Positions 3,252 through 21,172 are shown, counted from the stretch's first letter. The stretch: 64,000 nt of DNA from Thermodesulfobacteriota bacterium (GCA_049513055.1 JBEKWN010000031.1:8012-72011); one strand, 5' to 3'. Numbers and translations: made by a program. The notes: generated by a model not told the origin, from the sequence alone.

Positions 3252-3298
3252 GGGAGTTTTTTTAAAAACATGAAGGTGTTACGAGGTAAAATAATTAG

Positions 3299-5374
3299 AT
3301 GGAATTCAAAACGGTTTTAAGCTTCTGTCCTTATTGTGGATGTGGATGCGGGTTGCTGTTGGAAGTCCTCGATGGGAAAATCGTTGGGACCCTTCCTTCT
3401 AAAACCAGTCCTGTGAATCAGGGCAAATTGTGTATCAAAGGATGGACGGTCCATGAGTTTGTTACGAGCCCAAACCGATTAACCAAACCTATGGTTCGCA
3501 AGGGCGATGCTTTAGGGGAAACCTCATGGGATGAGGCGCTCAATCTTGCAGCCACACGCCTGAAAGAGATTAAAGAAAAATATGGTCCGGATAGCATTGG
3601 GGTATTGACCTCTGCCAAGTGTACCAATGAGGAGAACTATGTTTTACAGAAGTTCACCCGGGCAGCCATCGGCACGAACAATATCGACCATTGCGCCCGG
3701 CTCTGACACTCCTCCACGGTGGCCGGGCTGGCCGCAGTATTTGGCAGCGGGGCAATGACCAACTCCATTGAGGAGATCGAGGGTGCTGACTGCATCTTGA
3801 TCATCGGCTCCAATACTTCGATAGCCCACCCCCTCATTGCCACACGTGTCTTCCGAGCGAAAGCCAGAGGAGCCAAGTTAATTGTCGCGGATCCTCGTAG
3901 AATTCCGATCATCCTTCAAAGCGATTTACACCTTCGTCAGAATCTCGGAACGGATGTGGCCCTCATCAACGGTCTGATGCACGTCATCTTGAAAAACGGG
4001 TGGCAAGATCAGGCCTTTATTGATGAGCGCACAGAAAATTTTGAAGAACTGAAAAAGTTGGTTGAAAATTATCCTCCTGAAAGGGTCTCGGAGATCACAG
4101 GGGTCCCGGTGGCTGATCTGGAAAAGGCAGCAGAATATTATGCCAAGGCTGAGCGTGGAAGCATTCTTTACACCATGGGCATTACCCAGCACACCACGGG
4201 TGTGGATAATGTCAAGTCCCTTGCCAATCTGGCGATGCTCACAGGAAATCTCGGCAAGGAATCCACAGGCATCAATCCTCTGCGAGGGCAGAACAATGTC
4301 CAGGGCGCCTGTGACATGGGTGGGTTGCCGAATGTTTATACGGGTTACCAGACAGTGATCGATCAAGCGGTTCGACAAAAATTTGAAGAGGCCTGGGGAG
4401 CTAAACTTTCAGATAAAATTGGATTGACTGCGACTGAAATGTTTCCTGCTGTTCTGAATGGGAAAATGAAAGCCATCGTCATCCTGGGTGAAAATCCAGT
4501 GGTGAGTGATGCGGATTGCCATCATGTGGAAAAGGCACTCAAAGCCCTTGATTTTCTCTTAGTCATCGATATCTTCAATACCCCCACCTCGGACCTGGCT
4601 CATGTGGTTTTGCCCGGGGCTGCCTTTGCAGAGAAAGAGGGTACATTTAGCAACACAGAAAGAAGGGTTCAGTTACTTCGAAAGGCGGTAGAGCCTCCTG
4701 GAGAGTCCAAACCAGACTGGCAGATTATCCAGGAGCTGTCGAGCCGTTTTGGTTATCCCATGGATTATTCATCACCCCGTGCCATCATGGAAGAGATTGC
4801 AAAGCTCACCCCATCTTATGGCGGCATTACTTATGATCGACTTCAAGGCGAGGGGTTGCTGTGGCCCTGTCCCAATACTGAACATCCTGGAACTAAATTT
4901 TTACATCAGGGTCGATTTACCAGAGGCAAAGGTTTGTTTAGCGCCATTGAATACAAACCCGCTGCAGAAACAGCTGATGAGGAGTATCCTTTCCAGTTAA
5001 CCACCGGAAGGGTTCATGTCCATTACCACACCGGTACGATGACGAGAAATTCTCCTTCATTGGAAAGGGAAATCAAGGAATGTTTTCTTGAAATGCATCC
5101 CGAAGATGCTGTTGAACTTAAGGTGGCAGATGGTGATTGGGTCGTCATTGCATCAAGACGCGGGTCGGTTCCCACCCGGGTGAAGTTGACGGACGCAGCA
5201 GGAAGAAAAACAGTATTCATGCCTTTCCACTTCCTTGAAAGCAGAGCTAACATATTAACCAACCCGGCTTTTGATCCCATTGCCAAGATCCCAGAATTTA
5301 AGGTCTGCGCCGTGAAGATTCAAAAAAAGGATCCATCGGACAAAAGCATCTCTTCACCTACCTCAGCTCATTAG
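3299..5374 (+). CDS. fdhA: Formate dehydrogenase alpha subunit (Mo/W-bisPGD), selenocysteine-containing (UGA 3704), 691 aa
   Basis: ORFs 3299..3706 and 3719..5374 are in one frame, joined by the canonical FDH active site IDHCARL-U-HSSTVAGL. Also CPYCGCGC, LRGQNNVQGACDMG and PEFKVCAV. No Tat signal, so cytoplasmic. Confidence 0.96.
3719..3735 (+). promoter_or_regulatory. Putative SECIS element of fdhA
   Basis: GTGGCC-GGGCT-GGCCGC hairpin; the loop starts 18 nt after UGA 3704-3706. Confidence 0.7.
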
Positions 5375-5737: not shown

Positions 5738-6094
5738 ATGTTGATTGAATATCTTGCCATTCTCATCTATATTGTCATAGCTGTTGTTTTTGCCCTCTTT
5801 GCCATTGCCGCTTCCGCTCTCTTAGGCCAGAGAAAACCCACGGCTATCAAACAAGCGCCCTACGAATGTGGGATGACGACCATTGGCTCAAGCTTCCGCA
5901 GGATATCCATCAAGTATTACATTATTGCCATGCTTTTCCTCCTCTTTGATATTGAAGTGGTCTTCCTCTATCCCTGGGCAGTGGTCTTCAAACAGTTTAA
6001 GGTCTTTGCCTTCGTCTCAATGGCTGTCTTCATTGGAATTTTACTCGTCGCCTATATCTACATCTGGAAAAAAGGAGCATTGGAATGGGAATAG
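5738..6094 (+). CDS. nuoA: NADH-quinone oxidoreductase subunit A
   Basis: [28 protein letters not shown]. Confidence 0.97.
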
Positions 6095-6591
6095 AAACCT
6101 ACCTTGAGAAAACGCCTTTTATGCCTGCCCTGGATTGGCTCGTCAACTGGGGTCGAAAGTATTCGATCTGGCCGGTGACCTTTGGCTTGGCCTGCTGCGC
6201 TCTGGAGATGATCGTCACCAGTTCGGCGACGTGGGATATTTCTCGATTTGGTTCAGAGGTTTTCAGGCCCTCCCCCCGGCAGGCAGATTTGATGATCGTT
6301 GCAGGGACCTTGACCAAAAAGATGGCTCCAATGGTCAAACGAATCTATGAACAGATGCCGGAACCCAAATGGGTCATCGCCTATGGAGCCTGTGCCTGCT
6401 CAGGCGGAGTCTTCAAAACCTACAGTGTGGTGCAGGGAGTGGATCAAATTCTTCCAGTGGATATCTATGTTCCAGGTTGTCCACCCAGACCTGAATCTCT
6501 GCTGACGGCCCTTGTTCAGCTCCAGAAGAAGATTGGAAAAGAAACGCTTGCGAATCGAAAAAATGTTCGCAGCAGCCTTGAAATGAAATAA
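6085..6591 (+). CDS. nuoB: NADH-quinone oxidoreductase subunit B
   Basis: [34 protein letters not shown]. Confidence 0.97.
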
Positions 6592-6613
6592 AAGGATAAA
6601 AGAGGAAAAGGGA

Positions 6614-7102
6614 ATGGCTGAAATCAATATCGCAGTGAAGAAATTGCAAGAAAAATTCCCGGCCTCCGTTTTGGAGGTGAAGACATTTCGGGAAGAGGTC
6701 AATGTCACAGTCCAGAAGAAAGACATTTTTGAGATCTGTAAATTTCTCTATTCCGACCCGGATCTCCAATACCAGATGCTCATTGATCTCTGTGGTGTAG
6801 ATTTCTTTCCCGAGTCCCCCCGTTTTGAAGTGGTTTATTTTTTCTACTCGATGAAGAAACAACAAAGATTGAGGCTGAAAATAAAAGTTGGAGAGTCTGA
6901 ATCGGTTTCAAGTGTGGAGTCAATCTGGAAAGCAGCCAACTGGTTAGAACGGGAGGTCTATGACCTCTTCGGGATCCCTTTTGATAACCATCCTGATTTG
7001 AGGAGGATTCTCCTCTGGGATGGTTATGAAGGTCATCCCTTGAGAAAGGATTTTCCGGTCGAAGGACCGGATTTTGACAAACCCTTTGTTCCCGAGGTTT
7101 GA
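6614..7102 (+). CDS. nuoC: NADH-quinone oxidoreductase subunit C
   Basis: ANWLEREVYDLFGI, HPDLRRIL, GHPLRKDFP. Confidence 0.97.
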   Translation: MAEINIAVKKLQEKFPASVLEVKTFREEVNVTVQKKDIFEICKFLYSDPDLQYQMLIDLCGVDFFPESPRFEVVYFFYSMKKQQRLRLKIKVGESESVSSVESIWKAANWLEREVYDLFGIPFDNHPDLRRILLWDGYEGHPLRKDFPVEGPDFDKPFVPEV

Positions 7103-7103
7103 A

Positions 7104-8276
7104 ATGGCAGAGACACGGTTAATGACCATCAACATGGGACCTCAGCACCCGGCCACTCACGGGGTTTTGAGGATCGTGTTGGAATTGGATGGAGAGGTGA
7201 TCGTTAAGGCCGTCCCCCATATCGGCCACCTTCATCGGGGGGTTGAGAAACTCGCTGAAAGTAAAACGTATCACCAAGTCATTCCCCTCACCGACCGTTT
7301 GGATTATACCAATGCGATGGGTAATAACCTGGGCTATGTGTTAGCCGTGGAGAAACTTTTAGGCATTGACATCCCCAAACGGGCTCAATACCTAAGAGTC
7401 ATGATGGCTGAGCTTCAGAGGATTGCCGCCCATCTCATCTGGTTGGGAACGCACGCCTTGGACATCGGCGCCATGACGCTCCTCTTTTACAACTTTCGGG
7501 AAAGGGAAGAGATCCTGAAAATCTTTGAAGAGGTTTCAGGAGGGAGGCTCACGCCCACCTATATGAGAATTGGCGGAGTTTCAAAAGACCTTCCAGACGG
7601 CATAGAAGAAAAGATCAAGGCGTTTGTCCAGTCCTTTCCCGAACACATGAAAGAATATGAAACGCTCCTGACGAAGAATGTGATCTGGTTGAAGAGGACC
7701 AAAGGCGTTGGGTTCATTTCTAAAGAGGATGCGATCAACTGGGGGGTGACCGGGCCCACCCTTCGTGGCTCTGGAGTCAAATATGATGTGAGGAAGGCCT
7801 TTCCCTATTCAAGTTATGATGAGTTCGATTTCGATATCCCCATCGGCTCGGTCGGGGATGTCTACGATCGGTACATCGTGCGTTTGAGGGAGATGGAATG
7901 GTCGAATGCCATTGTGGAACAGGCACTGGAACGGCTGCCAAAAGGTCCTGTCATCGCTAATGATCCACGAATCACCTTGCCACCGAAGGATGATGTTACA
8001 AAAGATATCGCTGCATTGATTCGGCAATTCAAGATTGCCTCTGAGGGCTTCCAACCGCCGAAAGGCGAGGTCTATGTGGGCGTGGAGGCGTCCAAGGGAG
8101 AGTTGGGATACTATCTCGTCAGCGATGGGTCGAATAAGCCCTTGCGGATGAGGATTCGGCCGCCCTCTTTTCTCAATCTCAGTGCCCTTCCTAAGATGAT
8201 TGAGGGGAGTTTAATTGCTGATGTGATTTCAGCGATTGGTAGCATTGACATCGTTTTAGGAGAAATCGACCGATAA
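7104..8276 (+). CDS. nuoD: NADH-quinone oxidoreductase subunit D
   Basis: NMGPQHPATHGVLR, HRGVEK, DIVLGEIDR; likely start is ATG 7104, right after the nuoC stop. Confidence 0.97.
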   Translation: MAETRLMTINMGPQHPATHGVLRIVLELDGEVIVKAVPHIGHLHRGVEKLAESKTYHQVIPLTDRLDYTNAMGNNLGYVLAVEKLLGIDIPKRAQYLRVMMAELQRIAAHLIWLGTHALDIGAMTLLFYNFREREEILKIFEEVSGGRLTPTYMRIGGVSKDLPDGIEEKIKAFVQSFPEHMKEYETLLTKNVIWLKRTKGVGFISKEDAINWGVTGPTLRGSGVKYDVRKAFPYSSYDEFDFDIPIGSVGDVYDRYIVRLREMEWSNAIVEQALERLPKGPVIANDPRITLPPKDDVTKDIAALIRQFKIASEGFQPPKGEVYVGVEASKGELGYYLVSDGSNKPLRMRIRPPSFLNLSALPKMIEGSLIADVISAIGSIDIVLGEIDR

Positions 8277-8281
8277 AAGAG

Positions 8282-8390
8282 AAAATCCAAATGCCAAAAT
8301 CCATAATGTCAAAGGAATGTCAAAATCCAAAAATTTTGAAATTTGGATTTGATTTGTCATTTGAGCTTTGACATTTGAACTTTCATTTTT
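8282..8390. repeat. Intergenic tandem-repeat hairpin (AAATCCA/AATGTCA units plus reverse complement)
   Basis: aaatccaaatgccaaaatccataatgtcaaaggaatgtcaaaatccaa ... atttggatttgatttgtcatttgagctttgacatttgaacttt. Confidence 0.75.
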
Positions 8391-8405
8391 AATGAAGGGG
8401 TCGTT

Positions 8406-10358
8406 ATGACGGACATTCTTTTTAGCAGTTGGGGTGGAGTGGTGACAGATAATCGAGGGAAACCTGAAGCAGAGAGGCAACCCGTCTCCGCTCTCAATCT
8501 ACCCCTGGAATTGGACAAAGAGAAAAAGATCAAAGCCTTCATTGGATGGGATGGGATTGTCATCAGAGACCCTGAAGTCAATATGGTCGATTTGATTCGG
8601 GCTTATTTGGAAGCAGTTCAGGATGAATCCTGCGGAAAGTGCACACCCTGTCGTGTCGGAACTCGGATCATGGCGACCATTATGAACCGGATTGGTGATG
8701 GTCAGGGCAAGGTTGAGGACTTAAAACAATTAAAATTTTTAGGGGAGACGATTCAGAAGAGTTCCAAATGCAATTTGGGACAGACCGGTCCAAAGCCGGT
8801 GTTGGATGCGATCGACCATTTTGAAGACCAATTCTCCGGGGCCATCCAATTGCAGAAAAAAATTCCTCGCCAGGAATATAAAGTGAAGGTGACAGCACCC
8901 TGCGAAAGTGCTTGCCCTTCCCATCTCCCTATTACCCGTTATGTCGAATTGATCAAAGAAGGAAGATTTGAGGAATCCCTTGCAGCCATCCGGGGGGCAA
9001 CCTGCTTGGCCGGAGTTCTGGGGAGGATCTGCGTTCGACCCTGTGAAGATAACTGTCGCCGTGGAAATGTTGATGAATGTATTTCTATTAAATGGCTGAA
9101 AAGGTTTGTGGCAGATTATGAGATAGAAAAGAGAAAGGAACCTCTCCTTAAGAAGGAGGGAGCTCGTTCAGAAAAAGTGGCCATCATCGGAGCAGGTCCA
9201 GCTGGCCTCTCCTGCGCCTATTATCTTGCCCTGAAAGGTTATCAAGCGACCATCTTCGAAAGACTGGGTGAACCAGGTGGAATGGCCGCCATGGGGATCC
9301 CTGACTATCGTCTCCCTAGAGATATTGTTGGATATGAAGCAGAGATTGTAAAGAGGTTAGGGGTCGAGATTAGGTATAACACTCAGGTGGGAAAGGATAT
9401 CACCATCTCTCAGATGTTTGAGCAAGGTTATAAGGCGATCTTTATCGGCGTGGGCGCCCAGACCAATACACCCATGGGTGTGGAGGGAGAGGACAAAGGA
9501 TATAAGGGATTCATCCCCGGTGTTTATTACCTCTTAGAAATCAATCTGGGAAGAGACCCCTATCCCGAGGGAAAAAGAGTGGTGGTGGTCGGTGGCGGAA
9601 ACGTGGCCATCGACTGTGTCCGATCTTCTTTCCGCATTGGCAAAGCAGATGTGAACCTGGTTTATCGTCGAACAAAGAAAGAGATGCCTGCCGATCGAGT
9701 AGAGATTCATGATGCAGAAGAAGAGGGCGTGAAATTTCATTACCTATGTAATCCCGTCCGGATCGTTGAGAAGGAGGGAAAGGTTGTTGGAATGGAATGC
9801 ATCCGGATGGAGTTGGGCGAACCGGATGAGAGCGGAAGGCGAAGACCTGTTCCGATCAAAGGTTCAGAATTTTTCATCGAGGCTGATATTGCCATACCGG
9901 CCATCGGTCAGGCGATTGACCTTTCCTTCCTTGAAGAGAAAGACGGGGTGAAGACAACGAAACGATCCACCATTGCCATCCAGGAAGGGACTTTCTTAAC
10001 AAGCCGTCCAGGAATCTTCTCTGCTGGGGATTGCGTGACCGGACCGGATGTTTTGGTCCGTGCAGCCGGCCATGGTAAGAGGGCTGCTGAGAAGATTGAC
10101 CTCTTCCTTCGAGGGATGGAAGTAAAAGAATCTGAGGAAGAACGTCTGGAGGCCCTGGTTGAGAAGATCAAGGTTTATAACAAGGATGAGAAGATCGGGA
10201 TCTCCGGAGGACAGAAGAGAGCGATGTTGGAGTTGCTTCCTCCTGATTCAAGAAAATGGATCTTCGATGAGGTGGAAGAAGGATTTTCGATTCCGGTGGC
10301 TCAGAAAGAAGCGGAGCGCTGTCTCCGATGTGTGCGGATCGGACTCTTCGCAGTATAG
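8406..10358 (+). CDS. sfrB: SfrB-like NAD(P)H oxidoreductase beta subunit (NuoF-type 4Fe-4S domain plus GltD/NfnB-like FAD domain)
   Basis: N-terminus FSSWG..DNRG..AFIGWDG resembles Geobacter SfrB as I recall it. ESCGKCTPCRVG (NuoF N3 motif), APCESACP, GRICVRPCEDNC, GAGPAG, GGGNVAIDC, YRRT (NADPH-type), EAERCLRC. Confidence 0.85.
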   Translation: MTDILFSSWGGVVTDNRGKPEAERQPVSALNLPLELDKEKKIKAFIGWDGIVIRDPEVNMVDLIRAYLEAVQDESCGKCTPCRVGTRIMATIMNRIGDGQGKVEDLKQLKFLGETIQKSSKCNLGQTGPKPVLDAIDHFEDQFSGAIQLQKKIPRQEYKVKVTAPCESACPSHLPITRYVELIKEGRFEESLAAIRGATCLAGVLGRICVRPCEDNCRRGNVDECISIKWLKRFVADYEIEKRKEPLLKKEGARSEKVAIIGAGPAGLSCAYYLALKGYQATIFERLGEPGGMAAMGIPDYRLPRDIVGYEAEIVKRLGVEIRYNTQVGKDITISQMFEQGYKAIFIGVGAQTNTPMGVEGEDKGYKGFIPGVYYLLEINLGRDPYPEGKRVVVVGGGNVAIDCVRSSFRIGKADVNLVYRRTKKEMPADRVEIHDAEEEGVKFHYLCNPVRIVEKEGKVVGMECIRMELGEPDESGRRRPVPIKGSEFFIEADIAIPAIGQAIDLSFLEEKDGVKTTKRSTIAIQEGTFLTSRPGIFSAGDCVTGPDVLVRAAGHGKRAAEKIDLFLRGMEVKESEEERLEALVEKIKVYNKDEKIGISGGQKRAMLELLPPDSRKWIFDEVEEGFSIPVAQKEAERCLRCVRIGLFAV

Positions 10359-10431
10359 TGTGTTGGTGAATAGTGAGTGGTGAATCGTGGTGAGGGATTC
10401 CAAATCACGATTCAAGAATCTCGAATCACGA
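10357..10431. repeat. Intergenic 7-nt tandem-repeat hairpin
   Basis: tagtgtg ttggtga atagtga gtggtga atcgtg / aatcacg attcaag aatctcg aatcacg. Confidence 0.65.
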
Positions 10432-10437
10432 GGTTTG

Positions 10438-13071
10438 ATGAGAATGCTGAAGCTGACGATTGATGGAAAAGAAGTTACTGGAAGACCGGATCAAACAATC
10501 CTTGAGGTAGCTAAAGAAAATGGGATCACTATTCCCACCCTGTGTTATCACCCCAGATTAAGCCTGCTCAAATCCTGCCGTATCTGCTTGGTCGATGTCG
10601 AGGGTGCGGAAATGCCTATGGCCTCTTGTGCGACGCCTGTGGTCGAGGGGATGGTGGTTCAAACCCGCACGGAGCGCGTGGAGAGGATGAGGCATGAGGC
10701 TTTGAAATTATTACTGGTCAACCATCCTCTGGACTGTCCTGTCTGTGATGCTGGAGGAGAATGCCAGCTCCAGAACCGCACCTATGAATTCGGGATCGAA
10801 AAGAACGAGTTTCCTCCAGAGAAAAGAGAGTTTCCCTCCATCCCTTATGGGACTCCCCTGATCCGGCAGTGGTTTGATCGATGTGTCATGTGTCTCCGCT
10901 GCATCCAGGCCTGTGTCGATGTGCCAGGAGCGGATGTCCTCGAGGTGGCAGAACATGGTTTCATCTCCCATGTGAAGGCCGTTCGGAAAGAAAATTGTAT
11001 CTCCTGCGGAGAATGCCTCCATATGTGTCCGGTGGGTGCCTTAACAGAGGATTTCAGCCCCATCAAAGGAAGGACATGGCAACTGGACAGAATCCAGACC
11101 ACCTGTACTTTCTGTGGATGTGGTTGCCAGCTGGAGCTCAATACCCTTGCAGATAGGAAGGTGGTCAAGGTGACCACAAAAGAGGATGCCGGGGTCAACC
11201 AGGGTAGCCTCTGCGTGAAGGGGAGATTCGGTTTTGATTTTATTCATCATCCGGGCAGGCTTCAAAAACCTCTTGTGAAAAAATCCGGAGTTTTTGTGGA
11301 GGTCTCCTGGGAAGAAGCCTTGGGTCTGGTCGCCACAAAATTTCAAGAAATAAAGGAGAAGTATGGCGTCCAGAGCATCGGAGGAATCTCTTCCTCCAGG
11401 GCCACCAATGAAGAGAATTACCTCTTTCAGAAATGGATGAGAGCCTGCATCGGGACAAACCATATTGACAATGGTGCCCGATTGTCTAGCGGCTCTTCCC
11501 TCTATGGGATGATGGCCTCTACTGGATGTGGGGCAATGACTCACGGGATGGACGAGGTAGCCAAGGCTGACCTCATTCTTATCGTCGGTGCGGATGCGTA
11601 TGATGATAACCTCATCTTCAGCAATAAGATGAGGGAGGCCATCCGTGAGAACAACGCTAAAATCATCCTGGCCGATCCTCGAAAGACCCAATGGGAAAAA
11701 TGGGCTGACTTATGGTTGAGACCTGTACCGGGGACGGATATCGCCTGGATCAATGGTCTGGTTCGTCTCCTTATCGAAAAGGGTGCTCCTTCAAGAGAGT
11801 TTATTGGATCTAAGACAGAGGGTTTTGAAACCCTGCGGTCCTCTTTAGAGAAATTTTCTGCCGAGTTTGTCAAGAATACCACAGGAATCTTTCCAGCTGA
11901 TTTAGAAAGGGTTGCCAATCTTTATCTCTCGGCGAAAAAGAGGGCGATCGTCTTTGGTTCTGGTGTAACTCAGCATGCCAATGGAACAGAGATAGTAAAA
12001 GCTCTTTGCAACCTGGCCCTGCTGACCGGAGAGACAGAAGCGGGAGGAGGGGGCGTCTACCCACTGCTCACTCAGAATAATGTCCAAGGCGCTTTTGATA
12101 TGGGTTCTCTTTCTGAATTCCTTCCCGGTTATCAGAAGGTGGAAGACGAAAAGGCGCGCAGGAAGTTCGAGGAGATTTGGGAGAGAGGGATTCCAGAAAA
12201 ACCAGGTTTCACCTATGTGGAGATGTTCGATAAGATTTTGGAAGGAAGGATCAAAGCCCTCTATATTTTTGGTGAGGACCCCTTCATCAATCTTCCTAAC
12301 TTGGAGAGATTGAAGAACGGACTCCATCAATTGGAATTTTTGGTGGTTCAGGATCTTTTCATGACCCACATTGGGAGTTATGCACAGGTGATTTTGCCTG
12401 GAGTGAGTTTTGCTGAGAAGGACGGAACCTTCACCAACATGGAGAGAAGGATACAAAGGGTGCGGAAGGCCATCTCACCGGTCGGTGATTCCAGACCCGA
12501 CTGGAAAATCCTCTGCGATCTTTCAACGAAGATGGGTTATCCATTGGGATACCAGAACCCGGCTGAGATCATGGAGGAGATTACCTCTCTGGTGCCTTTC
12601 TATGCTGGAGCCAATTACTCCAATCTGGAGAAGGGCGGGATCCAGTGGCCTTCAAGGAATGGATGGAAAAAAAGATTCCTCCCCGTCGAATACAAAGGGC
12701 CAGAAGAGCAGCCCGATGACAAATATCCTTTATGGATCATTCCCAGAGGTTTTCATTACCATTACGGAATCGGGACGACGACCAAGAGAGCCATGGGGTT
12801 AGCCAAGGTCTTTTCTGATTCCTGCATCGAAGTTCACTCAGAGGATGCCACCAAAGCAGGCTTGGGAGATGGGGATAGGGTGAAGGTCATTTCACCCAGA
12901 GGTGAGGTGGAGACGATCTGCCGGATTTCAGGAGCCGTTCCCAGAGGGGTGGCTTATTTTGCCACCACGTTTTTCCCTGTTTTTGTGAATAACCTTTTGA
13001 TTTCCGGATACGACCCTGTGAGTCAGCACCCTGAATACAAGGTCTTCATTGGAAGGGTGGAGAAACGGTAG
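10438..13071 (+). CDS. sfrA: SfrA/NuoG-like Fe-S protein with a degenerate molybdopterin-oxidoreductase fold
   Basis: [2Fe-2S] LCYHP..SCRICLV..ASC, HPLDCPVCDAGGECQLQ, two CxxCxxCxxxC motifs and CTFCGCGC. The FDH-like active site reads IDNGARLSSGSS with no Cys/Sec or His. Likely start ATG 10438 after GAGGT. Confidence 0.82.
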   Translation: MRMLKLTIDGKEVTGRPDQTILEVAKENGITIPTLCYHPRLSLLKSCRICLVDVEGAEMPMASCATPVVEGMVVQTRTERVERMRHEALKLLLVNHPLDCPVCDAGGECQLQNRTYEFGIEKNEFPPEKREFPSIPYGTPLIRQWFDRCVMCLRCIQACVDVPGADVLEVAEHGFISHVKAVRKENCISCGECLHMCPVGALTEDFSPIKGRTWQLDRIQTTCTFCGCGCQLELNTLADRKVVKVTTKEDAGVNQGSLCVKGRFGFDFIHHPGRLQKPLVKKSGVFVEVSWEEALGLVATKFQEIKEKYGVQSIGGISSSRATNEENYLFQKWMRACIGTNHIDNGARLSSGSSLYGMMASTGCGAMTHGMDEVAKADLILIVGADAYDDNLIFSNKMREAIRENNAKIILADPRKTQWEKWADLWLRPVPGTDIAWINGLVRLLIEKGAPSREFIGSKTEGFETLRSSLEKFSAEFVKNTTGIFPADLERVANLYLSAKKRAIVFGSGVTQHANGTEIVKALCNLALLTGETEAGGGGVYPLLTQNNVQGAFDMGSLSEFLPGYQKVEDEKARRKFEEIWERGIPEKPGFTYVEMFDKILEGRIKALYIFGEDPFINLPNLERLKNGLHQLEFLVVQDLFMTHIGSYAQVILPGVSFAEKDGTFTNMERRIQRVRKAISPVGDSRPDWKILCDLSTKMGYPLGYQNPAEIMEEITSLVPFYAGANYSNLEKGGIQWPSRNGWKKRFLPVEYKGPEEQPDDKYPLWIIPRGFHYHYGIGTTTKRAMGLAKVFSDSCIEVHSEDATKAGLGDGDRVKVISPRGEVETICRISGAVPRGVAYFATTFFPVFVNNLLISGYDPVSQHPEYKVFIGRVEKR

Positions 13072-13083
13072 AGGAGAAGCAGG

Positions 13084-14103
13084 ATGCAACTGTTGTATCT
13101 TCTCATTGAGATCATTGTCAAATGCGTGGTGGTTTTTGCCGGTCTGATGATTGTTGTAGCCTATTTGACCTGGCTGGAACGGAAGGTTTTGGGTCATATC
13201 CAGATTCGTTATGGCCCTAATCGCTGTGGGCCCTTTGGATTACTTCAACCCTTTTCGGATGCGGTCAAAGCCTTCTTTAAAGAGGACCTGGTTCCTGGAA
13301 GGGCGGATAAGGTCATCTTCGTCATGGCCCCGATGATTTCGATCATCGCAGCCATCAGCATCTTTGCCGTCATCCCCTTTGGAAATCAGTTTACCATCCC
13401 TGGAACGAATTGGGTGGTCAAACTGCGGCTGGCCGATGTGGATATAGGACTTCTCTATATCTTTGGTGTGGCCTCTCTTGGAGAATTTGGGATTATCTTA
13501 GGAGGCTGGTCTTCTGGAAATAAGTATGGATTGACCGGTTCCCTTCGGGCTGCGGCTCAGATGATCAGTTATGAAGTAGCTCTTGGCATCGCGGTCATAG
13601 GAGTCCTCATCCTCTCAGAAAGCCTGAGACTGACCGAGATCGTTCGTCTTCAGGGAGGAGGGTTCTGGAATTGGAATATTTGGTATCAGCCGGTGGCCTT
13701 TGTCCTTTATCTGATTTGCGGTCTGGCTGAGATCAACCGAACTCCCTTTGACATGCCTGAGGCTGAAGCAGAGCTGGCCTGCGGGTTCAACATTGAATAC
13801 AGCAGCATGAAATTTGCCCTCTTCTTCATGGCTGAATACGCCCATATGGTTACGATGGGCGCCGTGGCCGTGACGCTCTTTCTGGGAGGATGGCAGCCGA
13901 TTATTCCTCAGCTCAGTTTCATTCCCGGCATCGTCTGGTTCTGCGCAAAACTCTTTATCTTCCTCTTCTTCTTCATCTGGGAGCGAGGGACCATGCCGCG
14001 ACTCCGATACGATCAGATCATGAAGTTTGGCTGGAAGATTTTAATTCCATTGGCACTGATCAATCTTTTAGTAACTGGATTGGTCGTTTCACTGAAAGGG
14101 TAA
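13084..14103 (+). CDS. nuoH: NADH-quinone oxidoreductase subunit H
   Basis: ERKVLGHIQIRYGPN, LRAAAQMISYE, AEINRTPFDMPEAE, PRLRYDQ. Confidence 0.97.
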   Translation: MQLLYLLIEIIVKCVVVFAGLMIVVAYLTWLERKVLGHIQIRYGPNRCGPFGLLQPFSDAVKAFFKEDLVPGRADKVIFVMAPMISIIAAISIFAVIPFGNQFTIPGTNWVVKLRLADVDIGLLYIFGVASLGEFGIILGGWSSGNKYGLTGSLRAAAQMISYEVALGIAVIGVLILSESLRLTEIVRLQGGGFWNWNIWYQPVAFVLYLICGLAEINRTPFDMPEAEAELACGFNIEYSSMKFALFFMAEYAHMVTMGAVAVTLFLGGWQPIIPQLSFIPGIVWFCAKLFIFLFFFIWERGTMPRLRYDQIMKFGWKILIPLALINLLVTGLVVSLKG

Positions 14104-14117
14104 GAAAGAGGTCAACG

Positions 14118-14531
14118 ATGATCATTCCATTGCTGAAAGGTTTGGCGCTTACTTTGAACCGGTTTTTTTCCAAACCCATCACCATCCAATATCCTGAAGA
14201 GAAGGTACCTCCAGCAAAACGTTGGAGAGGCATTCAATATTTTGAAAAGGATGAGCGCGGGAAAACCAAATGTGTGGCCTGCGGCCTCTGTATGGCGGTC
14301 TGTCCCTCTCAGTGCATCTATATTGAGACGGCTGAAGATGAAGAGGGTCGACGGTATCCTCTTACCTATGAACTCGATGCCAGCCGATGTATCTTTTGTG
14401 GTTATTGCGAAGAGGTCTGTCCGGTGAATGCCATCTTTTTAGGAAAGAACTATGAATGGGTGGAAGGGGATCGAAAAGTCTATCTCATGACCACCGAGAA
14501 ACTTTTAGAAGAGAAAAAGGTTAATCCATAA
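14118..14531 (+). CDS. nuoI: NADH-quinone oxidoreductase subunit I
   Basis: TIQYPEEK, CVACGLCMAVCP, CIFCGYCEEVCP; start is ATG 14118 (the ORF track over-extends it). Confidence 0.96.
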   Translation: MIIPLLKGLALTLNRFFSKPITIQYPEEKVPPAKRWRGIQYFEKDERGKTKCVACGLCMAVCPSQCIYIETAEDEEGRRYPLTYELDASRCIFCGYCEEVCPVNAIFLGKNYEWVEGDRKVYLMTTEKLLEEKKVNP

Positions 14532-14543
14532 GGAGTAAAACGG

Positions 14544-15071
14544 ATGGCTGAAAATATCGTAACGATATTTCAATGGTTGATCTTTTTGGGGGTGGCCTTT
14601 GTCTCCATTATCGCCTCCTTATTAGTCATCACTCGAAAGAACCCTATTCACAGTGCTCTTTTTTTGGTGTTGACCTTCCTCTGCGTGGCGGTGCTTTATC
14701 TCCTGCTCTATAGTCAATTCATCGCCGTCATCCAGGTGGTGGTTTACGCCGGTGCCATCGCGATGCTGATCGTTTTTGTCATCATGCTTCTGGATCTGGA
14801 GCAGGAGCTTCGATCCGGTTTAAAACTTTTTTATTCAAAAGTGATCGGTGGCATGCTGATGGTCCTTTTTCTTTTCGGGATTATTTATTCGGTCGTGGCC
14901 AAATCCCCAACTGGCAAGATGGGTTCCTATACACCGGATCAGGCGAGTGCCAATGTGAAGGCCGTCGGCGAGATGCTTTTTACTCAATACCTTTTCCCCT
15001 TTGAGATTGTCTCCGTCCTTCTCGTGGCGGCCATCGTCGGAGCGGTCATTTTAAGTAAGAAAAGGACTTAA
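14544..15071 (+). CDS. nuoJ: NADH-quinone oxidoreductase subunit J
   Basis: [30 protein letters not shown]. Confidence 0.96.
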
Positions 15072-15081
15072 GGAGAGGATT

Positions 15082-15396
15082 ATGGTGATTCCATCCGTTC
15101 CCCCTGAATGTTATTTGGTCTTGAGCGGATTGCTCTTCACGATTGGAGTAATCGGAGCCCTGACCCGGCGAAATGCCATTGTGGTCTTCATGTGCATCGA
15201 GATGATGCTCAATGCTGTGAACATTACCTTCATCACCCTATCCCGTTTTCTCCAGTCATTGGACGGGGTTCTCTTCGCCTTTTTTGTAATGGCCGTGGCC
15301 GCCGCGGAGGCTGCGGTTGGGTTAGCGATCTTTGTAATGATCTATCGCTCAAGAGAAACAATCAATGTGGACGAAATTAATATTATGAAGTGGTGA
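15082..15396 (+). CDS. nuoK: NADH-quinone oxidoreductase subunit K
   Basis: [27 protein letters not shown]. Confidence 0.97.
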
Positions 15397-15401
15397 TCCA
15401 A

Positions 15402-15480
15402 AGTTATGAGTTAAGAATTATGAGTTATGAATTAAAATCAGATTTCAACTCTCAACTCTTAACTCTCAACTCTTAGCTCT
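15402..15480. repeat. Intergenic 7-nt tandem-repeat hairpin (GTTATGA / AACTCTY)
   Basis: gttatga gttaaga attatga gttatga att ... aactctc aactctt aactctc aactctt agctct. Confidence 0.8.
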
Positions 15481-15499
15481 TTTTTTAAAGGAGTCTTTC

Positions 15500-17491
15500 A
15501 TGTTTGATTATGTCTGGTTGATCCCCATGTTTCCGGCGATCGGGTTTTTGATCAACGGATTTTTTGGAAGACAATATTCAAAAAAAGTGGTCGGTTGGGT
15601 GGCCTGTTCAGCCCTCGGACTCTCCTTTCTCACTTCCATCCTCATCTTCTTTGAATTGATTGGGAGGCCATCCACTGAGCGCGTCTTTGAAAAAGTGATT
15701 TTTGATTGGGTGGTCTCGGGCTCTTTCCAAACAGTGATCGGCTACCAGATCGACCCTCTCTCCATCCTGATGGCACTGGTGGTCAGCGGGGTCAGTTTCT
15801 TCATCCACATCTACTCTGTAGGATACATGCATGACGATCCGGGTTATCCACGGTATTTCACCTACCTCAACCTCTTCGTCTTCATGATGCTCAACCTCAT
15901 CCTGGCCAACAACTTCTTGCTGATGTTTGTGGGATGGGAGGGTGTCGGCCTCTGTTCCTATCTCTTGATCGGTTTCTGGTTTGAGAAGGATTCCGCTGCT
16001 AACGCAGGGAAAAAGGCTTTTGTGGTCAACCGAGTGGGCGACTTCGGTTTCATTCTTGGAATGTTCCTCCTCTTCACCAGTCTTGGAAAACACGGGATCT
16101 GGACATTAGATTTTACAGAAGTCTTTGCCAATGCAAATAAGCTCGATACCGCCACGGTGACCGCCATCACCATTCTGTTCTTTATCGGTGCATGTGGAAA
16201 ATCGGCACAGATTCCCCTATATGTGTGGCTCCCTGATGCCATGGAAGGTCCCACGCCGGTCAGTTCCCTTATCCACGCGGCCACCATGGTGACCGCAGGG
16301 GTATACATGATCGCCCGGTGTAATGTACTCTACACCATGGCACCTCTCTCCATGGCGATCGTTGCCATTGTCGGCGTGGCGACTGCCATCTATACTGCTT
16401 CCATTGGATTCTGTCAGAACGATATCAAGAAAGTTCTGGCCTATTCTACAATCAGCCAGCTGGGATATATGTTTCTGGGCGTGGGAGTAGGTGCATTCAG
16501 CGCTGGCATCTTCCATCTGATGACCCATGCCTTTTTCAAGGGGCTTCTCTTTCTTGGCGCAGGAAGTGTCATGCATGCCCTGAGTGGCGAATTGGATATG
16601 AGAAAGATGGGAGCTCTCAGAAAAAAGATTCCCATCACCTTCTGGACATTCTTCTTTGCCACGCTGGCGATTGCCGGGATTCCTGGGCTCTCTGGATTTT
16701 TCAGCAAGGATGAAATCCTCTGGCAAGCCTTTTCCAGCTCCCACGGCCATTTCTTATTGTGGCTGGTGGCTGCTATCGCTGCTGGGATGACGGCCTTCTA
16801 TATGTTCAGGGCTCTGTTCATGACCTTCTTTGGTGAGTCCAGGGTTGATGAGCATGTGGCACATCATATCCATGAATCGCCCAAGATCATGACAGTTCCT
16901 TTAATGGTCCTTGCTGTGCTCTCCATTGTTGGAGGTTATATAGGTGTTCCCCATGTTTTGGGAGGAGCCAATCACATCCATGAGTTCCTCGCTCCTGTAT
17001 TAGGAGGTGGGGCTGAGCCGGCCAAAGCCCATGCCGGGATTTCAATCCTCTCACAGGCCTGGGCATCAGGAGGAGAGGGAGGAGGACATGGGGCTACCTT
17101 AGAACTTCTCATGATGGTGGTCTCTGTGGTCATCGCACTCATCGGGATTGGGATCGCTTACCTCTTCTACGTGAAGAACCCAGCCCTTCCCAAACTGTTG
17201 GCCGAGAGGTGGAAGGGACTCTACAAACTTGTTTTTAACAAATATTATGTTGACGAACTCTATGAAATCCTCTTCATCAACTCTCTTAAAAATTTGGGCA
17301 TGGGACTCTGGAAAGGGTTTGATGACTTTGTCATCGATGGTACGATCAATGGCATTGCCTATCTTATCGGTTTGCTCTCCGGAGCGATGAGAAAGATGCA
17401 GACCGGTTTGGTTCAAAACTACGCCTTTTCAATGATCATTGGTGGAATCGTCCTTGTAGCCTATTATATCGTGCGTGCTATTTTCTACTAA
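15500..17491 (+). CDS. nuoL: NADH-quinone oxidoreductase subunit L
   Basis: [44 protein letters not shown]. Confidence 0.97.
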
Positions 17492-17525
17492 ATCCGTTGC
17501 CGCACAGAGCAAAGGAGCTGGTTTC

Positions 17526-19076
17526 ATGTACATTTTGGGAATTCCCATCCTATCGCTGCTGATCTTCTTTCCAATATTGGGCGCCATTGTTCTCCTCTTC
17601 ATCAACAAAGAGAATGGGAGAGCGATCAGGTGGGTCACCTTAATTTTTTCTCTCATTGAATTCATTTTCTCGCTGCCCCTCTTCTTTGCCTTCGATTCCA
17701 AGACAGGAGCGATGCAATTCGTGGAGGATTGGTGGTGGATTCAGAGCTATGGGATCAGCTATAAATTGGGCATTGATGGAATCAGTCTTCTTCTGGTTCT
17801 CTTGACTACCTTTTTGACCATCCTATGCATCCTGTGCTCCTGGACAGCGATCACCTTCCGAGTAAAAGAATTCATGATTTCGTTCTTCTTCCTTGAGACA
17901 GGAATGATCGGTGCCTTGGTGGCCCTCGATCTCGTCCTTTTCTATGTCTTCTGGGAAGTGATGCTGATCCCGATGTACCTCCTCATCGGTGTCTGGGGTG
18001 ATCCCAAGAGACGAATTTATGCAGCGATCAAGTTCTTCCTCTTTACCATGGCAGGAAGCGTGCTGATGCTTGTGGCTATCTTAATCCTCTATTTCCTCAA
18101 TCAGAAAGCAACGGGTATATCCACCTTCGATGTACTCGAACTCTATAAGTTGGGATTACCGGTCGGGACGCAGTACTGGCTCTTCGGAGCCTTTGCCCTG
18201 GCCTTTGCCATCAAGGTTCCGATGTTTCCATTTCATACCTGGTTACCCGATGCCCACACCGAGGCGCCGACCGCTGGAAGCGTGATCCTGGCAGGTGTCT
18301 TGCTGAAGATGGGAACCTATGGGTTCATCCGATTTGCCATCCCCCTGTTTCCGAAGGCAGCCTTCGATCTTTTGCCCCTGGTCTCTGTTTTGGCGCTTAT
18401 CGGAATTATCTATGGAGCATTAGTTTCGATGATGCAACCCGATCTCAAACGACTGGTCGCTTTCTCGAGCGTGAGCCACCTGGGATATGTCATGCTCGGG
18501 ATGTTTGCTTTCAATATGCAAGGGATCGAGGGGTCGATCTATCAGATGCTCAACCACGGGATTAGCACAGGGTCCCTCTTTTTGATCGTCGGGATGGTCT
18601 ACGAACGCCGCCATACGCGGCTGATTGCCGACTTCGGAGGACTCTCGAAGGTGATGCCGATTTATGCTGTCTTCTTCATGATCGTGACCCTCTCATCGAT
18701 TGGTCTCCCCGGGACGAATGGGTTTGTGGGAGAGTTTTTGATCCTGCTCGGTGCTTTTCAACGCAATGTCATCTACGGGGTGTTGGCTGCCACCGGTGTT
18801 ATTTTGGGAGCCGCTTATATGCTATGGATGTTTCAAAGGGTGATGTTTGGGAAGATCACCCGTCCTGAAAATGAAAAGCTGAAGGACCTCAATGCGAGAG
18901 AGATTACTATCCTCGTTCCGATGGTCATCATGATTTTCCTCATGGGGATCTATCCTAAACTTTTTTTCAGTAAGATGGACGCCAGCGTAGAGAAGTTTAT
19001 AAAGGATTTCAAGGGAAAGGTTGAAATGAAGGCTGACCTTCCCTCGCCGAAAATATTGGCAGAGATAAAAAAATAG
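17526..19076 (+). CDS. nuoM: NADH-quinone oxidoreductase subunit M
   Basis: [41 protein letters not shown]; likely start ATG 17526 after AAGGAG. Confidence 0.97.
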
Positions 19077-19171
19077 GGTTTAAGGGGTCTAGGGTTCAAG
19101 TGTCCTAATGAAATAATCTTTAACTCATCTTAAGCCCTGAAATCCATGAACCCTCGAATCCTTGGACCCTT
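19076..19171. repeat. Intergenic 8-nt tandem-repeat hairpin (GGGTTCAA / TGAACCCT)
   Basis: gggtttaa ggggtcta gggttcaa gtg ... taagccct gaaatcca tgaaccct cgaatcct tggaccct. Confidence 0.75.
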
Positions 19172-19191
19172 TTAATTGGAGGATTCTTTAG

Positions 19192-20649
19192 ATGAAAATA
19201 CCAGAGATTGACCTCTATCTCATTGCACCGGAGATCATCATCACCGCCTTCGGGTTTTTAGTGCTTCTGGTGGACGTCTTTTTACCCAAAGAAGAAAGAA
19301 AGGGGTACCTCGGAGTAATTAGCCTCATCGGGATCGTGGTCGCCTTTCTTTTCACCCTTCCTCAGATGGGAGATGTCAAATCCGGTTTTGAAGGGATGTT
19401 CATTTCGGATGGATATGCTCTCTTCTTCAAGATCACTTTTCTGATCATTGCCTTTTTGACCGTCCTGATCTCCATTGGATACACCCAGAGGGAAGGGATC
19501 GCATTCGGAGAATATTATGCCCTGATCCTTTTTGCAACCCTCGGGATGATGCTGATGGCAGCAGGGACTCACCTCATCATCATCTTTCTCGGGTTGGAAA
19601 CGATGTCCATTTCCATCTATATCCTGGCAGGAATGATGCGAGAGGATAAGAGGTCAGTGGAAGCGGCATTGAAATATTTTCTTTTAGGGGCCTTTGCCAC
19701 AGGATTCCTCCTCTATGGTATTGCCCTCATCTATGGGGCCACAGGATCCTTTCATCTGAAGGATATCGCCTCTTATATCGCTACCAAAAATCTCTTGAGA
19801 AGCCCGATGCTCCTGATGAGCCTTGTTTTTCTCACCATTGGGTTTGGTTTCAAGATTGCTTCGGTTCCTTTTCATATGTGGACGCCTGATGTCTATGAAG
19901 GGGCTCCCACTACCATCACGGCTTTTATGGCGACAGGGGTGAAGGCAGCAGGTTTTTCAGCTTTGATCAGGGTCTTCTTCTCCGCCTTGCCCGCTTTTCG
20001 TCCGGATTGGACCTCGATCATGTGGGTAATTTGTGTGGCGACGATGACGCTCGGAAATATTGTGGCGATCTCCCAGACCAATATCAAGCGGATGCTGGCT
20101 TACTCGAGCATTGCTCATGCTGGATACATTTTGGTCGCCTTTGTTGCAGGCAACGATTTAGGAACCTCAGGCATTCTTTTCTATCTCATGACTTATGCCT
20201 TTATGAACCTCGGTGCCTTTACCGTAGTCATCCTCCTCGGGAAGAAGGGAGAAGAGAATACCCTCATCAGTGATTATGCAGGGATTGGATTCAAATATCC
20301 GCTCTTAGCAGTTTCCATGACCATTTTTCTCCTCTCCATGGCAGGTATTCCTCCTCTGGGTGGATTTATGGCCAAATTCTATATCTTCAGCGCAGCGGTG
20401 AAATCGAAATTTTATTGGTTGGCCATCCTTGGTGTCCTGAACAGTGCGGTTTCGGTTTACTATTATCTCCGGGTCACCGTGCTCATGTATTTCAGGGAAT
20501 CCGAACGGGAGATCACCGGCCTCCAATTTTCACCCGCTTCTGTGCTCGCATTGATTTTGGCCGTGATCGGGACCCTTTACCTGGGGATCTTCCCCGCCAA
20601 TGTGCTCTCCTTCGTTTTTTTTCTCGGCCACAAGAGGGATTTGATTTGA
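19192..20649 (+). CDS. nuoN: NADH-quinone oxidoreductase subunit N (last ~12 codons appear foreign)
   Basis: EAALKYF, GFKIASVPFHMWTPDVYEGAP, KRMLAYSSIAHAGY, LSMAGIPP. The stop codon overlaps the next promoter's -35 box. Confidence 0.95.
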   Translation: MKIPEIDLYLIAPEIIITAFGFLVLLVDVFLPKEERKGYLGVISLIGIVVAFLFTLPQMGDVKSGFEGMFISDGYALFFKITFLIIAFLTVLISIGYTQREGIAFGEYYALILFATLGMMLMAAGTHLIIIFLGLETMSISIYILAGMMREDKRSVEAALKYFLLGAFATGFLLYGIALIYGATGSFHLKDIASYIATKNLLRSPMLLMSLVFLTIGFGFKIASVPFHMWTPDVYEGAPTTITAFMATGVKAAGFSALIRVFFSALPAFRPDWTSIMWVICVATMTLGNIVAISQTNIKRMLAYSSIAHAGYILVAFVAGNDLGTSGILFYLMTYAFMNLGAFTVVILLGKKGEENTLISDYAGIGFKYPLLAVSMTIFLLSMAGIPPLGGFMAKFYIFSAAVKSKFYWLAILGVLNSAVSVYYYLRVTVLMYFRESEREITGLQFSPASVLALILAVIGTLYLGIFPANVLSFVFFLGHKRDLI

Positions 20650-20709: not shown

Positions 20710-21172
20710 ATGATGAAGACGGTGCAGATGACCTTAGATGAGAATCTCATAGTATCCGTAGACAAGGTGGCCAAACGTCTTGGTACAACTCGCTCTGCAT
20801 TTACAAGGCAAGCCCTTAAGATCGCCCTCAGGGAAGTTCGTATCAATGAGTTGGAGCGGAAACATTGCGAGGGCTATAAACGTAAACCTGTTAAAAAAGG
20901 AGAGTTTGAGGATTGGGAGGCTTATTCTGACCCGGGATTCCGCATTAGAGTTCCTGGGAGAGGTAACGATAGCTCCCATTACATCCACGATTCGGGATAT
21001 CCCTACCGAAGTTTTATTGGCGAAAGAAGATGGAATGCCCAAAGACTGTGCCGTGAATCTCGATCACATCCAGACTGTTTCAAAAGGAAAGATTGGGCCT
21101 TTGATCGCAACACTGAGTTCCATTAAGATGTCAGAGTTAAGGTCGGCTATGCTATTTGCCCTGGGGTTTTAG
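20710..21172 (+). pseudogene. mazF: RHH antitoxin plus PemK/MazF toxin pair collapsed by an internal deletion
   Basis: RHH N-terminus (MKTVQMTLDE..TTRSAFTRQAL..GEFEDWE) runs at ~20920 into toxin sequence in another frame (LILTRDSALEFLGEVTIAPITSTIRDIP..VNLDHIQTVSK). The toxin start and N-terminal KRP-type segment are absent. Confidence 0.8.

Follow-up and report, generated by a model that had tools for sequence, protein, structure and literature searches.

A 64,000-nucleotide stretch of a contig from a Thermodesulfobacteriota bacterium (GCA_049513055.1 JBEKWN010000031.1:8012-72011; hereafter the window) carries a respiratory complex I operon in which the slot of nuoEFG is occupied by two other genes. 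One encodes a GltD-like flavoprotein (P0001), and the other an iron-sulfur protein of mixed NuoG and formate dehydrogenase (FDH) character (P0002). We consider it probable that the operon specifies a 13-subunit complex I that has, in place of NuoEFG, a module of two subunits taken over from an NADP-dependent FDH of the Moorella type. This is the organism's only respiratory complex I operon, as a genome-wide profile search of the source genome (204 contigs, estimated to be 100% complete) returned a single nuoH, that of the operon. Its features are as follows, with coordinates counted from the first letter of the window.

5738-6094, plus strand: nuoA (PF00507, E 2.5e-36)
6085-6591, plus strand: nuoB, N2 cluster subunit (PF01058; NF005012, 240 bits against a cut-off of 116)
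6614-7102, plus strand: nuoC (PF00329; TIGR01961, 153 bits against a cut-off of 122)
7074-8276, likely start 7104, plus strand: nuoD (TIGR01962, 572.6 bits against a cut-off of 459)
8277-8405, plus strand: AT-rich spacer of 129 nt with palindromic repeats, between nuoD and the flavoprotein gene (from the sequence)
8406-10358, plus strand: P0001, FdhB/SfrB-like flavoprotein of 650 residues (Pfam domains, NuoF profile, solved homologs)
10387-13071, likely start 10438, plus strand: P0002, apparently decayed FdhA / NuoG-like Fe-S protein, open reading frame (ORF) of 894 codons (domains, decay analysis)
13084-14103, plus strand: nuoH (PF00146, E 8e-122)
14118-14531, plus strand: nuoI, 137 residues with two 4Fe-4S motifs (TIGR01971, 141.7 bits against a cut-off of 113)
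14544-15071, plus strand: nuoJ (PF00499)
15082-15396, plus strand: nuoK (PF00420)
15500-17491, plus strand: nuoL (PF00361 and PF00662)
17475-19076, plus strand: nuoM (PF00361)
19192-20649, plus strand: nuoN (PF00361)

The 13 genes lie head to tail on the plus strand between 5738 and 20649, where a preliminary description of the window had placed them. Pfam and NCBIfam profiles confirmed the order it gave, nuoA-B-C-D, flavoprotein, FdhA/NuoG-like protein and nuoH-I-J-K-L-M-N, and identified all 11 Nuo homologs (A, B, C, D, H, I, J, K, L, M and N) in one cluster. It had also reported an operon without nuoE or an FMN-binding nuoF, and the genome-wide search agrees: neither the NuoF FMN domain (PF01512) nor NuoE (PF01257) is found on this contig, and the canonical set of 14 subunits is not encoded there. 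The motifs that it had listed, ESCGKCTPCRVG, GGGNVA...YRRT and DNGARLSS, are all present in the translations.

Spacing across the operon is tight (-29 to +129 nt), with gaps of 129 nt between nuoD and the P0001 gene, 28 nt between the genes of P0001 and P0002, and 12 nt between the latter and nuoH. A start at 10438 is likely for P0002 because its homologs have 869-877 residues, and nuoI most likely begins at 14118, which has a ribosome-binding site, rather than at the ORF start of 13890. NuoD carries HPATHG and LDY, which we take to be quinone-site motifs, and NuoB carries Cys37, Cys38, Cys103 and Cys132, presumably the N2 cluster motif. No NiFe-site signature was seen, with hydrogenase models scoring far under their cut-offs.

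The flavoprotein comprises three Pfam domains, NADH_4Fe-4S (PF10589, residues 62-144), Fer4_20 (PF14691, 163-242) and Pyr_redox_2 (PF07992, 257-557), and has no Complex1_51K (FMN) domain. Residues 30-145 match positions 293-408 of the NuoF profile. P0001 thus keeps the C-terminal 4Fe-4S domain of NuoF, together with two further 4Fe-4S sites (Fer4_20) and sites for FAD and NAD(P)H. Its solved homologs are of the NfnA, StnA, NfnB and GltD types, the body being GltD/NfnB-like, and residues 155-647 align to chains of PDB entries 8oh5, 9bov and 9n5u. These domains and the NADPH-type motif described below are those of the beta subunit in the family of SfrAB and NADP-type FdhAB; the labels that automatic clustering gives P0001 include ‘putative Formate dehydrogenase beta subunit’, which we take as a lead only.

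All 11 solved matches to the nucleotide-site segment are Nfn/Stn-type entries, GltD or dihydropyrimidine dehydrogenase. The pattern GGGN.A.D...VYRR(T/S)..EM is common to five aligned solved homologs, its VYRR(T/S)..EM part being noted as without an acidic residue, and VYRRT..EMPA of P0001 recurs in the five best solved homologs, which are Nfn/Stn-type NADPH subunits. The NADPH-type motif ascribed to the flavoprotein in the preliminary description is therefore a shared feature of such subunits. Because the motif is common to solved NADPH subunits, and because the Moorella enzyme discussed below is NADP-dependent, NADPH is the likelier substrate. The module might instead be docked and use NADH, or both nucleotides, making an NADH:quinone oxidoreductase from unusual parts; motif and family membership are, after all, what points to NADPH. 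We regard this as improbable, since each of the 11 solved matches either has a name that links it to NADP(H) or is of Nfn/Stn type, the five aligned homologs share the motif with no acidic residue in it, and the biochemically characterised member of the family is NADP-dependent (PMC13040438).

P0002 contains Fer2_4, NADH-G_4Fe-4S_3, Fer4_Nqo3, Molybdop_Fe4S4, Molybdopterin and Molydop_binding domains, that is, a complete FDH-type molybdopterin domain preceded by NuoG-type 2Fe-2S, His-Cys3 and ferredoxin-like 4Fe-4S domains. It scores just under the cut-off of the Fdh-alpha model (TIGR01591, 659 bits against 666.25) and under that of NuoG (TIGR01973, 423.1 against 470.05), with the N-terminal cluster motifs all present. 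Among solved structures it matches YjgC (573 bits) and FdsA (553-556 bits) well above NuoG (~257 bits, mostly at the N-terminus). A NuoG-type N-terminus joined to an FdhA-type molybdopterin domain, encoded beside a beta subunit, is the build of the alpha subunit in the SfrAB and FdhAB family.

We aligned 10 window-type proteins with 17 FdhAs that have a selenocysteine (Sec)-His or Cys-His motif. All 20 Fe-S ligand columns (4 Cys; His and 3 Cys; three sets of 4 Cys) are invariant, so that P0002 keeps one 2Fe-2S and four 4Fe-4S sites. The N-terminal domain of P0002 retains 39 of the 43 columns that are invariant in the active FdhAs. In the Mo domain it retains 105 of 155 such columns, and 67 of the 155 are retained in all ten window-type proteins. 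The losses include the positions that we take, from E. coli FdhH, to be catalytic. The Sec-aligned position 367 is Ser in the window and Ser or Ala across the ten sequences (Ala in six); the His-aligned position 368 is Ser in the window and Ser, Asn or Gly across the set; and position 561, aligned to the Arg of RGQNNVQG, is Leu in the window and Leu, Phe or Val across the set. All 17 comparison FdhAs have Sec (Cys in one), His and Arg in these columns. The window-type proteins also have replacements in the SNT..HP loop and at several further positions that are constant in the active FdhAs.

The Mo domain is nevertheless under strong purifying selection and is not freely decaying: the ratio of nonsynonymous to synonymous substitution (dN/dS) is 0.09-0.13 in five of five pairwise comparisons, against 0.06-0.19 for the N-terminal part of P0002, 0.04-0.06 for the flavoprotein and 0.03-0.10 for NuoD, NuoH and NuoL. 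Kept ligands, lost catalytic residues and purifying selection together form the pattern expected of a NuoG-like scaffold and wire. P0002 thus looks like an electron wire whose FDH catalytic site has decayed, a role that the preliminary description had already suggested for it and that the alignment bears out.

Could P0002 be more than a wire, and still an enzyme whose remodelled pterin site accepts a new substrate? The strong selection on the Mo domain and a TIGR01591 score barely under the cut-off would fit this, and elsewhere in the DMSO-reductase family Ser can act as a Mo ligand. We find it very improbable nonetheless, given that the Sec-aligned position is Ala in six of the ten sequences, that the neighbouring positions vary, and that the SNT..HP loop and further invariant columns have been replaced.

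The arrangement is widespread. Of 352 loci with a relative of P0001, the best 80 were examined, and in 40 of them the relative stands beside nuo genes. The order to which the window belongs consists of one family, with 21 genera and 55 genomes. Of these genomes, 49 have an ortholog of P0001 with at least 75% identity (45 full-length, 4 partial), and none was found in the other six, which are 70-91% complete. The flavoprotein adjoins nuo genes in all 48 genomes of the order whose locus was examined, including eight of eight additional genomes. With orthologs in 49 of 55 genomes, and nuo genes beside every one of the 48 loci examined, the arrangement is not due to chance and is close to universal in the order.

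Two variants occur within the order. In variant 1 the flavoprotein is followed by a degenerate G-like protein and nuoH; 33 genomes including that of the window, and one probable further genome, have it. The nuoD, flavoprotein, G-like protein, nuoH order, for which the preliminary description had advised a synteny search, recurs in these genomes. The 14 genomes of variant 2 have nuoH immediately after the flavoprotein and an empty nuoG slot; one genome was unclassified. In all 10 variant-2 loci that extend upstream of nuoA (our loci L036, L037, L043-L045, L049, L050, L052, L113 and L116), the gene next to it there encodes a long FdhA of ~887 residues that has a NuoG-type N-terminus, and an in-frame TGA and then His at the catalytic position. 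This putative upstream Sec-FdhA suggests a formate-linked complex I. We rejected the idea that genus g2 is intermediate, combining a dead G in the slot with a long FdhA upstream: its upstream genes encode an Fe-S protein and a short Sec-FdhA, as in the window.

A third form is found in another order, in 3 of 96 genomes (G055, G149 and G150), where nuoABCD is followed by the flavoprotein, an FdhA and nuoH-N. Here the in-slot FdhA (L055, 11951-14674; L134, 10051-12756; L135, 6970-9645) retains a catalytic motif, Sec-His in G055 and Cys-His in G149 and G150. The only nuoH of G055 is the one in this operon. Another relative, G056, has a plain 11-gene nuoABCDHIJKLMN operon (L133, on contig C2), with a NuoD 68% identical to that of the window.

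The family of the pair is best seen in Moorella thermoacetica, whose purified NADP-dependent FDH has sfrB2 as its beta subunit and sfrA2 plus fdhF3 (split in the annotation) as its alpha subunit (PMC13040438). Since the Moorella FDH genes are annotated sfrB2 and sfrA2, SfrAB and NADP-type FdhAB are one family by annotation. Pairs with adjacent beta and alpha genes in this gene order are also present in L057, L072, L073 and L124-L131.

Quick trees (LG+G4) were built for the flavoprotein (37 rows) and the alpha subunit (36 rows). In the flavoprotein tree all nuo-linked copies of the order fall into one clade (Shimodaira-Hasegawa-like approximate likelihood ratio test, SH-aLRT, 100). Its next relatives are L055 and L057, then Desulfacinum, all Sec-FDH pairs. 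In the alpha tree the long Sec-FdhAs upstream of variant 2 group with the in-slot Sec-FdhA of L055 (SH-aLRT 100), and the window-type proteins form a clade of their own, with a stem of 0.44 and a weak placement. A single clade of all nuo-linked alpha proteins is compatible with the approximately unbiased (AU) test (p-AU 0.53), which does not demonstrate it. The branching of the two variants within the order is weakly supported in these trees.

The alpha proteins of the nearest relatives keep Sec-His or Cys-His, from which it follows that the pair would be a decayed NADP-type FDH that lost catalysis inside the lineage. Judged by sequence, P0001 and P0002 are best described as a decayed Moorella-type NADP-dependent FdhAB. 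The SfrAB identity proposed in the preliminary description therefore holds at the level of the annotated family; the nearest relatives are Sec-His or Cys-His FDH pairs rather than the inert SfrAB. Both genes have now been placed in trees, as it had recommended, with the caveats that the alpha clade is weakly placed and that the sequence set contains none from Geobacter. Within the window genome the best match to the variant-2 FdhA is P0002 itself (46% over the full length), and no further long FdhA of that kind is present. The convergent molybdoenzyme gene at 21193-23205 was considered as the missing long FdhA, and an identity of 27-29% rules this out.

Taken together, these genes point to the following path. 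NADPH would reduce the FAD of P0001, from which electrons would pass through the two Fer4_20 clusters to the NuoF-type cluster of the same protein. From there they would follow the 2Fe-2S/4Fe-4S chain of P0002 to NuoI, NuoB (N2) and quinone, along the N3-to-N2 chain of canonical complex I. P0002 would dock on NuoI and NuoCD as NuoG does, with protons pumped by NuoH and NuoL/M/N. The preliminary description had also allowed for bifurcation on account of the NfnB-like fold. This finds no support, since the operon contains no second electron path, that is, no NfnA-type 2Fe-2S/FAD partner and no BfuBC core, and the contig has neither PF01512 nor PF01257, though a partner could be encoded elsewhere.

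The reaction would be reversible in principle. Cellular NADPH lies at about -370 mV and CO2/formate at -432 mV (PMC13040438), with menaquinone at -74 mV (PMC9304861), so the NADPH/quinone reaction could run either way. Searches of the genome for DsrA and cytochrome bd came back empty, and no RnfC scored over its cut-off, but six NrfD-type quinone-linked anchors are encoded. The window itself contains a molybdoenzyme/NrfD cluster and a DsrMK-like set. The six anchors indicate quinone-linked reductases, and forward NADPH:quinone respiration is plausible; reverse electron transport may nonetheless be the main role. The region in question (49488-59030) comprises an aldehyde:ferredoxin oxidoreductase-like gene, a 4Fe-4S/NrfD/molybdoenzyme trio at 52108-55972, and a NarI-like, Fe-S and CCG-domain set at 56595-59030 that resembles DsrMK/Hme.

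Several observations weigh against a captured, docked NADPH module. The first concerns docking. A fold model of P0002 residues 22-888 (17-row alignment) with NuoI residues 1-130 (14-row alignment) scored 0.43, 0.43 and 0.49, against 0.02 for the best of three controls; at least 89% of contacts recur between runs, and the predicted local distance difference test (pLDDT) score of the partners is at least 80. In calibration, 58 of 80 solved complexes passed our mark, as did 2 of 110 mismatched pairs; passes with a score of 0.60 or less came from 7 of the 80 solved complexes and both of these mismatches. The model thus lies in the weak range and lends weak support to docking of P0002 on NuoI. The pass may also only mirror the likeness to NuoG and NuoI, as complexes of these two have been solved. 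Of the multimer modelling advised in the preliminary description, this covers the P0002-NuoI contact.

The second concerns genes elsewhere. In the flanks examined, 40 of the best 80 loci have no nuo genes. The flavoprotein/Sec-FdhA pair of G056 (L057), 59% identical to P0001 in its flavoprotein, is on a different contig from the 11-gene operon, an arrangement that may represent a state ‘before capture’, or one in which the pair donates in trans to an 11-subunit complex I. In the order of G055, all seven pairs checked are without nuo genes within a flank of ~1.5 kb, and all seven have Sec (six) or Cys (one). The Desulfacinum pairs (L072 and L073), also away from nuo, carry a TGA-His motif, and Syntrophomonadaceae pairs have another degenerate motif. 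Pairs away from nuo in relatives imply that the pair can work apart from it.

These points favour an alternative in which the window pair is a soluble NADPH oxidoreductase like Geobacter SfrAB, merely co-transcribed with an 11-subunit, ferredoxin-fed complex I. It might swap electrons between NADPH and ferredoxin or another carrier, which would then feed NuoI. The unlinked homologs, the G056 arrangement and the weak docking model all fit, and 11-subunit enzymes may use separate donors (PMC11238625). We consider it unlikely, though worth serious attention. Two separate lineages have the insertion at precisely the same place, between nuoD and nuoH; the flavoprotein retains the domain by which NuoF contacts NuoG in complex I; and a dead alpha protein without a substrate site of its own has had its clusters and fold maintained under strong purifying selection.

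Scans for promoters and terminators gave chance-level results (18 found against 17.4 expected, and 16 against 18.4), and do not define the transcript. In a sediment metatranscriptome (four runs, one study), contigs mostly 90-95% alike, and therefore from relatives, lie over the whole operon, with two of the runs covering 30 of 30 bins, and one type of contig runs from the end of nuoD into the flavoprotein gene. They hint weakly that the operon is transcribed in relatives; contigs from one study show neither a single transcript nor an expression level. The spacer at 8277-8405, with palindromic CAAAATCCA/TGGATTTG-type repeats in the window, varies among relatives, and the metatranscriptome contigs have 47 other letters in its place.

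Third, the genome does encode three NuoE/NuoF-like pairs on other contigs, none near nuo genes. The C4 cluster comprises NuoE, a 595-residue NuoF-like protein, an 847-residue NuoG/FdhA-like protein and EtfBA; the C10 cluster methylenetetrahydrofolate reductase, an HdrB-like CCG protein, NuoE, a 642-residue NuoF-like protein and a HoxU-like protein; and the C34 cluster 2-oxoacid:ferredoxin oxidoreductase genes, NuoE, a 623-residue NuoF-like protein and a 2Fe-2S/4Fe-4S protein. All are likely Bfu-type soluble enzymes. The preliminary description had named supply of the complex by nuoEF encoded elsewhere as a finding that would undo its proposal: such pairs exist, each in its own cluster with its own partner gene, which weakens the case for supply in trans. 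That one of them docks on the G-like protein and supplies NADH, leaving the GltD-like flavoprotein as an accessory, is scarcely probable at all. The pairs are real, yet each has a NuoG-like or 2Fe-2S/4Fe-4S partner of its own, all three NuoF-like proteins are long forms (595-642 residues), and the flavoprotein in the operon already carries a NuoF-type cluster domain.

Lastly, the quinone is unconfirmed, as MenD and MqnA, the only two markers tried, were not found in the genome. The hard-wired, NADPH-fed complex I of the preliminary description thus stands in its architecture and NADPH-type motif, with docking weakly supported and the specificity for NADPH read from homology.

A bolder version of the capture reading may be put forward tentatively, as a possibility that we do not favour outright. 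In it, complex I captured a whole NADP-type FDH whose catalytic site then died in the window's lineage, leaving a NuoG-like wire and with it a hard-wired, NADPH-specific complex I, while relatives retain a machine with three sites. If this is true, relatives that have a Sec- or Cys-FdhA in the nuoG slot or close upstream of nuoA would handle formate/CO2, NADP(H) and quinone, pumping protons on formate or NADPH, or using the membrane potential to drive reduction of CO2 or NADP+ from quinol. The unlinked pair, the intact-looking FDH in the slot, the FDH upstream and the dead FDH in the slot form a series of natural intermediates for the hypothesis of a descent of NuoG from an FDH-like enzyme. 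The capture would then be a living replay of how NuoG arose from a molybdoenzyme.

The electron source of the 11-subunit complex I of anaerobes is a long-standing question. An 11-subunit form with unknown donors is an existing concept (PMC11238625, PMC5736913), and no common donor is reported to have been identified (PMC11238625). An order-level lineage with a candidate donor written into the operon makes the question testable, and one real donor would be named if the capture reading is true. Bacteria of this order are abundant in sediment and soil, and an NADPH- or formate-linked proton-pumping complex I would alter what such anaerobes are taken to gain and spend in energy. It would also account for the marker-based surveys of related groups in which complex I comes out as mostly absent, for example with nuoA-N at 5, 4, 38 and 0% across four genome groups (PMC13685792).

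Other genes of the window were noted beside the operon. Upstream of nuoA, at 3-5374 on the plus strand, lie genes for an HdrA-like protein (3-1679), a 264-residue Fe-S protein (2234-3028) and a short Sec-FdhA (3299-5374), which together look like an Hdr-linked FDH unit. The short FdhA carries the DHCARLUH motif reported in the preliminary description, with its TGA at 3704-3706. This cluster was rejected as part of the operon, since not all window-type loci have it upstream of nuoA: it is present in L018, L025, L027, L031, L038, G001, G002 and G004, and absent from L022, L028, L029, L033, L034, L042 and L054.

Downstream of nuoN, a 138-codon ORF (20710-21126) has no Pfam match and no counterpart in related loci. 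Convergent with nuoN, at 21193-23205 on the minus strand, is a stand-alone 670-residue molybdopterin oxidoreductase with an in-frame TGA in its N-terminal Fe-S motif (CPYD-TGA-PDTC), presumably at a cluster-ligand Cys site. TGA is found at the same place in the ortholog of another genus (G013), and Cys in four others examined, so that the protein may be a selenoprotein in which Sec occupies the place of an Fe-S ligand. Further on, GC drops to 0.38 in a run of genes (24770-31669) that opens with a type I restriction enzyme R subunit (ResIII, EcoEI_R_C) and may be an acquired defence island.

Among known systems, the module shares with canonical NuoEFG its operon slot, the NuoF-type 4Fe-4S domain, the NuoG-type 2Fe-2S/4Fe-4S chain including His-Cys3, and a cofactor-less molybdoenzyme-like C-terminal domain in the G protein. 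It differs in having no NuoE and no FMN domain, and in possessing instead an FAD/NAD(P)H body of the GltD/NfnB type and two additional 4Fe-4S clusters. P0002 also falls under the NuoG cut-off and is nearer to real FDHs (573 bits for YjgC against 257 for NuoG). With the Moorella NADP-FDH it shares a two-subunit family by annotation, and the nearest relatives away from nuo have the same build; this link rests on annotation and relatives, no Moorella sequence having been compared. In contrast to that enzyme, the window alpha lacks Sec/Cys, His and Arg, and the pair lies inside a nuo operon.

SfrAB of Geobacter sulfurreducens likewise joins an NADPH-type GltD-like beta subunit to an FdhA-like alpha subunit, the latter not known to have a Sec/Cys ligand. 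No Geobacter sequence is among the best 80 of 352 loci, and since the closest kin of the window pair are Sec-FDH pairs, its loss of catalysis looks independent of that in Geobacter SfrA. Geobacter SfrAB is reported to be a soluble NADPH oxidoreductase (Coppi et al. 2007), and SfrB-like proteins have been described as NADPH partners of hydrogenases (PMC3543383, PMC9888536). The StnABC/NfnABC complexes (8oh5, 9bov, 9n5u) also wire a GltD/NfnB-like NADPH module to NuoG/HydA-like Fe-S domains, but they are soluble and bifurcating, have NuoF/NuoE-like subunits as well, and carry the GltD body fused to the G-like protein rather than to the C-terminal domain of NuoF. A conduit role for an FDH homolog has a precedent in a complex iron-sulfur molybdoenzyme (CISM) protein of Dehalococcoides, which is without FDH activity and thought to be an electron conduit in a respiratory complex (PMC5736913), although it belongs to the periplasmic FdnG-type FDH subfamily and has another partner complex.

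Closest in concept is Nuo-Bfu of Geobacter and others, a nuo operon with NuoEFG swapped for another input module (Schut et al. 2022, PMC9304861). Unlike the window operon, which has a GltD-like flavoprotein and no PF01512, Bfu uses NuoF/NuoE-like BfuBC with FMN. In the literature searched, to which supplements and most subscription journals did not belong, no GltD-type flavoprotein with an FdhA-type protein was found in the nuoEFG slot. Swapped input modules of complex I are thus already known, and the GltD/FdhA-type module in the nuoEFG slot appears to be new: a lineage-wide, probable input module of complex I, of formate dehydrogenase origin.

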